DNA of 64,000 nucleotides, from assembly GCF_017348835.2 (NCBI RefSeq), contig NZ_CP071375.1. One strand, given 5' to 3'. Source of the DNA: Escherichia coli (GTDB taxonomy: Bacteria; Pseudomonadota; Gammaproteobacteria; Enterobacterales; Enterobacteriaceae). This document shows, piece by piece, positions 24,001-27,000 of the stretch (the stretch's first letter is position 1; every line of letters begins with the position of its first letter). The position numbers were made by a program.

Positions 24001-27000
24001 ATGCAGTCCGGTGCGGAAATGGCGCAGGCGGAAATCCGCATCTGGGTGCGCGGTCAGTCCGGCCGGGAAATCACGGCAGCGTCACGACTTCATGTGCTGA
24101 GTGGTCCATGGCGTGACCGGATCCTGAACGTTGTCGGGCTGCCCGTGCCGGATGCGACCGGCGGGCGTCTGGAAATTCTCTGTCGGCTGGGAGGGGAAAA
24201 ATGATCGAAACCCTGCTGGATTTTTCGGGGCTGGAGGACATCAGCCGCGATTTGCAGCTTCTGAGTGGTGCGGAAAATAACCGGGTGCTGCGTGAGGCAA
24301 CCCGTGCGGGTGCGAATGTGCTGAAAGAAGAAGTGGTGTCACGGGCACCGGTACGCAGGGGAAAACTGCGCCGCAATGTGGTGGTCCTTTCCCGGTGCTC
24401 CCGCGATGGCGGGATGGAATCCGGTGTCCATATCCGTGGTGTTAATCCGGACACCGGTAACAGCGATAACACCATGAAGGCGGATAACCCGCGCAATGCT
24501 TTCTACTGGCGGTTTGTGGAAATGGGGACCGTGAATATGCCACCGCACCCGTTTGTGCGCCCGGCGTTTGATGTGCGCAGTGAACAGGCAGCTCAGGTGG
24601 CGATTGCGCGGATGAACCGGGCCATTGATGAGGTACTGAGACGATGACGGAGGCGGATTTGTATCCTTATCTGGCGCATCTTGCCGGCGGGCAGGTGTAC
24701 CCGTATGTGGTCCCCCTGCTGGATGGCAGGCCGTCGGTGGCGCTTCCGTGGGTGGTTTTCAGCCTGATTTCATCGGTGTCGGCGGACGTGATGGGCGGGC
24801 AGGCGGAGTCCTCAGTGTCGGTGCAGATAGACGTTTATGCCGGGACTGTGACGCAGGCGCGTCAGATACGTCAGGACGCCCGTGAAGCCATAATGCTGCT
24901 GGCCCCGGGATCCGTCAGTGAAATGCAGGACTATATTCCGGAAAACCGCTGTTACCGTGCAACCCTGGAGTTTCAGGTCACGGTGTGACTTTTTCTTTTT
25001 TTCTACAAAACCCATACCCCGCCGCGTGCGGGTTTTTTATTATCAGGAGGCAGAATGTCTGCTTTGTATGAACGCTCACAGCTGACGCAGGTGATGATTT
25101 CATCTGCCCCGGCGACTGCTGAAACTATGGATAAGGCGGAATATCTGCGCCTGGACTGCACCATCAAGGAAGTTCAGTTCACCGCCGGTCAGAAACAGGA
25201 TATTGATGTGACCACGCTCTGCTCCACAGAGCAGGAGAACATCAACGGTCTGGGGGCGTCGTCCGAGATTTCCATGTCGGGTAATTTTTATCTGAATCAG
25301 GCCCAGAACGCCCTGCGTGATGCCTATGACAATGACACGGTGTATGCGTTTAAGGTGCAGTTTCCGTCCGGTAAGGGCTTTAAGTTCCTGGCGGAAGTGC
25401 GTCAGCACACCTGGTCATCCGGTACCAACGGCGTGGTGGCTGCAACGTTTTCACTTCGCCTGAAGGGTAAACCGGTGTCCTATGTGGTACCGCTGGCGTT
25501 TGTGAAAAATCCGGAGAAGACACTTACCGTGAATACCGGTGCGCTGCTGACAATGTCAGTCAGTGTCAACGGGGGAACGCCGCCTTATAAACACGCCTGG
25601 AAGAAGGATGGTCAGCCGGTAGAGGGACAGACTACTGACACTTTCAGTAAAGCCAATACGCAGTCAGGTGATAAGGGGGCTTATACCTGCGAGGTAACGG
25701 ATTCTGCAGAACAGCCGCAGAGCATTACCTCTGATGCGTGTACAGTAACGGTTAATGGTGCGGGCGGATAAGGCTTATGGCAAAAGATCTGAAAACACTG
25801 GCGCTGGCCAGACTGTCGGGGTTCCGTCATAAAACGGTGAAGGTGCCGGAATGGAGAAATGTCAGCGTGGTGCTGCGGGAGCCTTCGGCAGAGGCCTGGT
25901 ATCTGTGGAAGGAAGTGCTCAATGGTGATGGAGAGGATGACGATACCCTGTCGGTGGTGGCGAAAACCCGCCGTAACCTGGAAGCGGATGTGACGCTGTT
26001 CTGCGATGTCCTGTGTGATACTGACCTGCAACGGGTGTTCACTCCGGACGACCGTGAGCAGGTGCTGGCCGTCTATGGTCCGGTACATGCCCGGTTGCTG
26101 CGTCAGGCACTGGAACTGATCGCTGATGCAGAGTCGGCCAGAAAAAAGTAGCCCGCCCGGAAATTCGCTTTCTGATGCGACTTGCGCTCCGTCTGGGGCG
26201 CACCTTATCCGAACTGCGGCACAGCCTGAGTGCGAGCGAGGCGATGATGTGGATGGAGTTCGACAGGGTATCCCCGCTGGGTGATGAGCGCGGGGATATC
26301 CGTAATGCGCAGATCGTGAAAGCGGTTTTCGGGGCACAGGGGATGAATGTTGCACTGAAGGACGCCATGCTCTGCTGGGGCGAGGATGAGGATAAGCCGG
26401 AGGTGGATCCGTTTGCGGCGCTGGAAGACGCGCTGAGCCTTGCAGCAATGTCATAAATAATGATGAAAACCTGCTGTGGCAGGTTTTTTTTGCCCGGAGA
26501 AAGGTGAATGGCGACGTTACGTGAACTGATTATCAAAATTTCGGCAAATTCACAGTCATTCCAGTCGGAGATCCAGCGGGCGTCCCGTATGGGCAGTGAA
26601 TATTACCGGACCCTGCAGAATGGCGGACGTCAGGCTGCTGCGGCAGCCAGGGAGCAGCGCCGGGCTCTGGCTGAGCTGCACAGCCAGTTGACGGAAATCC
26701 GCGCTTCGGCTGTCGGAATGACCGGTGCGTTTGCCGGTGCCTTTGCCACCGGACACCTGATTTCGCTGGCGGATGAATGGAGCTCCGTGAATGCCCGTCT
26801 GAAACAGGCGTCGCAGTCATCGGATGAATTTGCGTCATCACAGAAAGTGCTGATGGATATCAGCCAGCGGACAGGCACCGCATTTTCGGATAATGCGGCC
26901 CTGTTTGCCCGTTCGGCTGCCTCGATGCGTGAATATGGTTACAGTGCTGATGATGTGCTGAAGGTGACGGAGGCCATTTCGACAGGGCTGAAAATCTCCG

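Follow-up and report, generated by a model that had tools for sequence, protein, structure and literature searches.

How the second member of an overlapping pair of tail genes is expressed is the question raised by a lambdoid prophage of Escherichia coli (NCBI RefSeq assembly GCF_017348835.2, contig NZ_CP071375.1), of which we analysed one stretch of 64,000 nucleotides, hereafter the window. The prophage encodes a tail assembly chaperone, G, followed by an open reading frame (ORF), T, that lies in the -1 frame relative to G. The first-pass annotation had proposed that a programmed -1 ribosomal frameshift at a slippery heptamer joins the two frames into a GT fusion, and we conclude with high confidence that this is how the tail-assembly-chaperone pair, which belongs to the HK97-type tail module of an E. 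coli lambdoid (Stx-phage-like) prophage, is expressed. The frameshift site is genuine, was correctly read, and is already known and experimentally supported.

Reading frames and the slippery heptamer

By standard decoding, gene G (25777-26151, + strand) encodes a tail assembly chaperone of 124 aa with the C-terminus ...ARKK, and the codons at its 3′-end translate as GCC (26137), AGA (26140), AAA (26143), AAG (26146) and TAG (26149). Codon reading confirmed the earlier statement that the G-like ORF stops right after the heptamer A_AAA_AAG (26142-26148, + strand), which stands in the X_XXY_YYZ phase of the G frame. The 0-frame stop TAG (26149-26151, + strand) abuts the heptamer and terminates G, and it is a candidate 'shifty stop' stimulator. 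In the -1 frame, the final upstream stop is the TGA at 26124; from 26127 onward no stop interrupts this frame until the TAA at 26454-26456. It shares 25 nt (26127-26151, + strand) with the open G frame, the sole region where a shift can join the two. All-frame translation also bore out that the -1 frame stays open from the heptamer to 26456, and inspection of 26142-26175 found no stop in that frame.

After the heptamer, the -1 frame reads GTA (26148) GCC CGC CCG GAA ATT CGC TTT CTG ATG (26175). The T segment, defined by translation and profile matches, is a -1-frame extension of 102 codons, from GTA (26148) to TAA (26454-26456) (26148-26456, + strand). The predicted GT fusion is 226 aa long and consists of G residues 1-124 and the 102-residue extension, with the junction ...ESARKK-VARPEIRFLM.... 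The GenBank and Prokaryotic Genome Annotation Pipeline (PGAP) annotations instead place the start of a separate 93-aa 'T', as chosen by gene callers, at an internal ATG (26175-26177, + strand).

Profile searches supported both halves of the fusion. G, named 'phage tail assembly chaperone' by PGAP, matches Pfam PF06222 Phage_TAC_1 over its full length (1-124/124, E=7e-61) and phrog_344 'tail assembly chaperone' (E=2e-45). The T segment matches Pfam PF06223 Phage_tail_T (E=6e-19) and phrog_337 (E=5e-42, residues 4-101), the latter match beginning upstream of the ATG; because of these two matches, we take the downstream -1 frame to be truly coding. Moreover, phrog_14766, a fused-GT profile of 224 positions, was matched collinearly, by G at positions 1-122 and by the T part at 125-222. 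The G/T pair is flanked by the major tail and tape measure genes, which is the canonical G/GT position. The proposal that the locus reproduces the G/GT arrangement of long-tailed phages is thus supported by gene order, domains, the -1 frame and the in-phase heptamer.

The efficiency of this very site has been measured. Antonov et al. 2013 (NAR 41:6514, PMC3711429) tested predicted frameshift cassettes in E. coli by inserting them between GST and MBP, and the 75-nt cassette of their cluster Phage_TAC (Table S2; GeneTack 862991913, fs-gene 15618692) gave 7% ± 0.79 -1 frameshifting (PMC3711429). We found this cassette to be identical to positions 26122-26196 of the window, with no sequence difference, the value having been obtained in the GST-MBP reporter, not in phage. 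A Fraca-like cassette carrying G_GGA_AAG CCG TAA shifted 6% in the same study (PMC3711429). Among slippery motifs, heptamers of the form X_XXA_AAG work most efficiently in E. coli, and lysyl-tRNA(UUU) is strongly prone to shifting (Sharma et al. 2014, PMC4066793).

In the mechanism that we propose, the majority of ribosomes would translate G from 25777 to 26148 and terminate at the TAG at 26149, yielding the 124-aa G protein, and a minority would slip one base back on A_AAA_AAG (26142-26148). The geometry permits the two tRNA-Lys to re-pair in tandem, from AAA AAG to AAA AAA. The only tRNA-Lys of E. coli is the UUU species, and it would readily re-pair on AAA because it reads AAG only by wobble. 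Shifted ribosomes would then read GTA GCC CGC CCG and onward to the TAA at 26454, producing the 226-aa GT with its Phage_tail_T domain. If the reporter value applies in the phage, about 7% of ribosomes would make GT and about 93% G, and the fixed shift frequency would set a G:GT ratio of about 13:1. In lambda, gpG and gpGT each associate with the tape measure protein and T with the major tail protein; the gpG:gpGT ratio is 30:1, and neither protein is present in virions (Atkins et al. 2016, PMC5009743). If the pair acts as gpG/gpGT do in lambda, the tape measure protein (26508-29750), the expected binding partner of G and GT, may be coated by G and by the G part of GT, and the T domain may recruit the major tail protein (25055-25771). 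On the lambda model (PMC5009743), G and GT would both be needed for tail assembly and absent from virions, and we infer that efficiency and function in the phage context equal those of the reporter and of lambda.

Conservation and competing explanations

When the conceptual fusion was compared by tblastn with 50,697 phage records, 230 records were matched, and every match spanning G and T came in two pieces, i.e. in two frames (60 sampled tblastn rows). Two IMG/VR scans brought the survey to 171 related loci, and an alignment of ten phages spans 35-67% identity. Nearly all of the loci (168/171) are intact, and in every one of the 168 T is -1 relative to G and the junction carries an in-phase A_AAG. 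Apparent in-frame G-T fusions at L065 and L094 (one contig) and at L085 were rejected, as these copies are indel-damaged, with premature stops or a shortened A-run. Across the ten phages, T is always in the -1 frame and the shift-prone site stands at the identical alignment column. The site is A_AAA_AAG in the window, phi467, Vibrio Pm34, Bcep176, phiE125 and Bordetella PHB09; it is G_GGA_AAG in FSL SP-016 and Fraca, G_GAA_AAG in HK97, and A_GCA_AAG in Klebsiella ST147-VIM1phi7.2.

The shift codon is invariably AAG, although AAG makes up only 37% of the Lys codons in the structural module. In lineages with A_AAA_AAG, the codon just before AAA AAG may specify Arg, Lys, Glu, Gly or Ala, yet it always ends in A. 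With AAG fixed and the preceding codon variable but A-ending, selection acts on the nucleotides rather than on the amino acids. At the protein level, residues of the stretch encoded between the heptamer and ATG 26175 are conserved, and Pro128 within it is invariant in the 10 diverged homologues. For gp69/gp69′ of Bcep176, the existing annotation also invokes a -1 frameshift.

The closest parallel among characterised phages is gp13/gp14 of HK97, a true homologue that is about 60% identical across the entire fusion and has the same domain pair (PF06222 and PF06223, PHROG 14766). In HK97, too, the pair lies between the major tail and tape measure genes, the shift is in the -1 direction, and the junction falls at the same place in the alignment; its GenBank record enters gp14 as a joined coding sequence (CDS), 'translated due to a -1 frameshift'. 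The sites themselves differ. HK97 (L003 961-972) reads CGG GAA AAG, a noncanonical G_GAA_AAG, whereas the window has the canonical A_AAA_AAG with TAG; HK97 has no in-phase canonical heptamer, and its 52-nt overlap also contains CCC CCG G. Its G stop comes five codons later, in contrast to the TAG of the window, which directly adjoins the heptamer. Taken together, the homology to HK97 gp13/gp14, the conservation of the site down to 35% identity and the 7% shifting of an identical cassette uphold the G/GT frameshift that had been read from the sequence.

A chance juxtaposition of two frames, or a gene broken by a homopolymer frameshift mutation, could in principle be mistaken for such a site, and exactly such a broken gene lies in the same window. 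The type III secretion system effector gene espW (41626-40569, minus strand) is split at an A-run (41105-41099) into ORFs of 192 and 175 aa; its second ORF is in the -1 frame, with an in-phase A_AAA_AAG in the overlap, mimicking a programmed frameshift. We rejected this reading for espW, which carries a 1-nt deletion (A7 vs A8 in intact alleles) and served as a negative control; PGAP marks the identical allele of strain 2013C-3264 as 'frameshifted'. The gene is flanked by nleG-family effector genes at 39806-40441 (+ strand) and 41701-42351 (minus strand). Whereas espW has intact single-frame alleles, none was found for G/T among the 171 loci, the three aberrant G/T copies are damaged rather than fused, and the two-piece pattern holds throughout the 60 sampled tblastn rows. 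As for chance, the 50 longest ORFs of the window, with 17,052 in-phase codon positions between them, contain 75 canonical heptamers and 2 A_AAA_AAG, and both other in-phase A_AAA_AAG of the counted ORFs lie inside the espW pseudogene. Since the expectation for the six in-phase positions of the overlap is only about 0.026 for any canonical heptamer and about 0.0007 (7e-4) for A_AAA_AAG, a chance origin of the heptamer is unlikely, and we give almost no credence to chance or a pseudogene as the explanation of the locus.

It could also be argued that G and T are two genes, with T (93 aa) starting at ATG 26175, either independently or by reinitiation after the G stop 24 nt upstream. The GenBank and PGAP records all annotate two CDSs, the exact fusion sequence is missing from a collection of 15 billion proteins, Met134 is invariant in the alignment, and in the Burkholderia/Bordetella relatives the G stop overlaps the ATG (TGATG or ATGA), as is typical of translational coupling. 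However, a two-CDS annotation is the default output of gene callers, and ATG 26175 has no Shine-Dalgarno (SD) sequence: the anti-SD duplex of the 20 nt upstream reaches -3.5 kcal/mol, about the median of the ATGs in the window, in contrast to -5.8 to -12.8 kcal/mol at the neighbouring gene starts. Moreover, protein homology in the -1 frame, including the invariant Pro, reaches back beyond the ATG, and where the amino acids vary the nucleotides of the in-phase slippery site are kept. The cassette gives a GST-MBP fusion at 7% (PMC3711429), and lambda makes only GT, not free T (literature summarised in PMC5009743). Judged from these sequence features, ATG 26175 is probably not a real initiation site; as the sole route to T it is very unlikely, and it may make a minor contribution.

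Transcriptional slippage is a different route to the same product, in which RNA polymerase would add one A in the A6 run at 26142-26147 and the identical protein would be made from some of the mRNAs. Poly-A runs act in this way in other genes, e.g. Thermus dnaX (A9), the reporter of Antonov et al. is blind to the difference between a ribosomal and a transcriptional route, and phi467-type relatives carry a longer A8 run. The run in the window, however, has only six A, compared with the nine of the experimentally shown Thermus dnaX. Efficient slippage by E. coli RNA polymerase takes about 8-9 or more identical bases. The relatives with G_GGA_AAG or A_GCA_AAG have three A only and keep the arrangement, and the G_GGA_AAG cassette still shifted 6%. 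The strict use of AAG over AAA as the last codon suits slippage of tRNA-Lys, whereas polymerase slippage would favour more A. We therefore regard transcriptional slippage as highly improbable, even more so than a separate start of T.

Some points do weigh against programmed ribosomal frameshifting. The 7% was measured in a heterologous GST-MBP reporter rather than for the GT protein of this prophage itself. ATG 26175 (Met134) is invariant in the 10 aligned homologues, and some independently initiated or re-initiated free 93-aa T is possible. One extra A inserted by RNA polymerase would yield the identical protein (..RKKVAR..). Finally, searches by folding, anti-SD pairing and consensus structure identified no stimulatory element to account for the 7%.

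Candidate stimulators and comparison with known systems

For the programmed -1 frameshift, stimulators were sought on both sides of the heptamer. No SD-like element was found upstream in the window, where the best anti-SD duplex within -22 to -1 reaches only -3.0 kcal/mol; upstream anti-SD pairing is present in some relatives (-10.3 kcal/mol in Bcep176, -10.9 in PHB09 and -7.2 in phi467). Downstream, folds of 26149-26260 and 26100-26215 were no better than shuffles (z -0.3 and -1.0), single-sequence folds and consensus folds of 10 homologues gave no stable or conserved hairpin or pseudoknot 5-10 nt past the site, and Rfam returned no family match in or near it. The single conserved hairpin in the 10-homologue consensus fold is an 8-bp stem, UGCGCUCC-GUCU-GGGGCGCA (26183-26202, + strand), 35 nt past the heptamer, with a compensatory change in one pair only. 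We rejected it as a stimulator, given the long spacing, the fold no better than shuffles and the one covarying pair, and its position over the conserved LALRxGR codons makes it probably incidental.

In the lacZ system of Sharma et al., stimulator-free motifs reached at most about 10 times a background of 0.055%, and bare heptamers and tetramers stayed well under 1% (PMC4066793). The 7% of the window cassette against this <1% suggests some help from context, though the assays differ. The adjoining 0-frame TAG is the sole nearby candidate, and it, rather than an RNA structure, would supply any stimulation. A stronger version of this idea, namely that the 0-frame stop is a functional stimulator ('shifty stop') and that the essential motif is then the tetramer A_AAG and not the heptamer, is possible but we consider it rather doubtful. 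In its favour, the in-phase A_AAG is the sole invariant of the 168 intact loci, and in 163 of them, from about five independent lineages, the codon right after AAG is a stop; the Klebsiella site A_GCA_AAG TAA and the 7% of the window cassette, against <1% for bare motifs in the other assay, point the same way. Counter to it, the Fraca-type cassette has its stop one codon later and still shifted 6%. If the idea is true, slippage could take place once tRNA-Lys has reached the P site and the A site is still awaiting release factor, and the G:GT ratio would respond to release-factor activity.

The relatives differ in the surroundings of the site. A clade of Klebsiella-type prophages, with 78 IMG/VR loci (L006 and 77 more, L095-L173; also L134 and L156), carries A_GCA_AAG TAA. 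The variants T_GCA_AAG and A_GAA_AAG also occur in this clade; these sites are noncanonical and retain only the tetramer A_AAG and the adjoining stop, and an ATG lies two codons into the -1 frame. A P-site tRNA-Ala would be unable to re-pair here, which suggests single-tRNA 'shifty stop' slippage or another route to T. In the Burkholderia/Bordetella phages L009, L010 and L011, A_AAA_AAG stands 10-11 codons ahead of the G stop, and this stop overlaps the conserved T ATG (TGATG or ATGA). Two of the three have a strong SD-like element 8-14 nt upstream (GGGAGGAAG and GAGGGGG). The family thus varies in its possible stimulators, and from these sequences translational coupling could be added in the Burkholderia/Bordetella relatives.

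The lambda G/GT pair, reportedly studied by Levin, Hendrix & Casjens (1993) and Xu, Hendrix & Duda (2004, 2013, 2014), follows the same logic as the window, with the same gene position, a -1 shift and an in-phase slippery site near the end of G. In both, the PF06223 T domain begins 28-29 residues after the shift, the post-shift spacing K-V-x6-F-x-[LM]-x-L-A-x-x-[LM]-G-R is identical, and an RNA stimulator is not evident. The G parts differ, however: lambda G is PF06894 Phage_TAC_2, whereas the window G matches PF06222 only, and BLASTP of one fusion against the other was not significant. To call the protein a 'lambda-like G' is therefore loose, for the T domain is common to lambda, but the G part belongs to the HK97 family PF06222 and not to PF06894; the window functions like lambda G/GT with a G outside the G family of lambda. 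The lambda slip site is an in-phase G_GGA_AAG five codons before the G stop, and the G:GT ratio of 30:1 (PMC5009743) compares with 7% here. The lambda T extension has 144 residues, against 102 in the window.

E. coli dnaX and IS911/IS3 use the same heptamer, A_AAA_AAG, and the same tRNA-Lys(UUU) slippage chemistry. In these systems the heptamer is flanked by an SD-like element 6-17 nt upstream and by a hairpin or pseudoknot downstream, with shifting up to about 50%, whereas the window has neither element. The shifted product is the shorter of the two in dnaX but the longer in the window.

The prophage and the meaning of the site

The tail module runs in the order tail completion, major tail, G, T and tape measure, followed by M, L, K and I homologues. 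The tail completion protein is encoded at 24644-24988. The major tail (tube) protein (25055-25771, + strand) has a C-terminal Ig-like domain, matches Pfam Phage_tail_2, Phage_TTP_11 and Ig_2, and is annotated as the major tail subunit. The tape measure protein (26508-29750, + strand) has 1080 aa and matches Pfam Phage_HK97_TLTM (E=1e-90), TMP_3 and Tape_meas_lam_C. At 99.5% identity, the segment matches Stx-converting phages and related lambdoid phages of E. coli, e.g. BP-4795, Stx2a_WGPS2 and PPompW phages, and it is present in 1,245 of 5,426 complete E. coli genomes at 2,908 places, often with several copies per genome. In E. coli 2014C-3011 (L012 1409-2061), the closest RefSeq genome, the tape measure gene beside an identical G/T is flagged as a frameshifted pseudogene; the copy in the window is intact.

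Within the late operon, T stops at 26456 and the tape measure gene starts at 26508, and the 51 nt that separate them hold a terminator-like hairpin, AAAACCTGC-TGTG-GCAGGTTTT, together with eight consecutive T (26462-26495). HK97 differs here in having the moron gp15, with putative terminators, between gene 14 and the tape measure gene, where the window has only this 51-nt spacer; the hairpin may be what remains of a moron, or a pause site subject to Q antitermination. A 461-aa ORF (22136-23521) of the head-gene region, lying between the genes for the portal and the head-tail connectors, comprises four to five near-identical copies, in tandem, of a unit of about 53 aa (…IPVPADGKSITPDDVRPMLEQMVKEAVSHIPVPRDGRDYDPEVLQKAVNDAVAN…). 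ORFs on the opposite strand of the G/T region (25681-26454 and 26039-26536, minus strand), which match no Pfam or PHROG family, and a +1-frame ORF (26126-26284) with no Pfam match were rejected as shadow ORFs.

The prophage also carries tRNA genes for tRNA-Met(CAT) and tRNA-Arg(TCT), followed by the small RNAs STnc100 (+ strand) and AgvB (anti-GcvB, minus strand), with a sok antitoxin RNA farther upstream; the coordinates listed for this group are 8752-8827, 8928-9004, 9774-10028 and 5170-5344. The codon before the two Lys codons of the slip site, AGA, is a rare Arg codon (15 of the 235 Arg codons in the module) and is readable by the phage's own tRNA-Arg(UCU).

Biologically, the frameshift adds little, as it is a textbook G/GT feature with an annotated HK97 homologue and a published efficiency for this very sequence. 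RefSeq/PGAP and most GenBank records of Stx phages give G and T as two genes, under the names 'phage tail assembly chaperone' and 'phage tail assembly protein T' in the sampled E. coli rows. With the 226-aa fusion unrecorded, proteomics searches and tail-assembly models for the prophages of enterohaemorrhagic E. coli miss a real product. The remaining interest lies in this annotation gap and in the source of the efficiency, including that of the Klebsiella A_GCA_AAG TAA clade. With A_AAA_AAG-stop, G_GGA_AAG-stop, G_GAA_AAG and A_GCA_AAG-stop, the family offers a small series of natural variants for frameshift efficiency without RNA structure.

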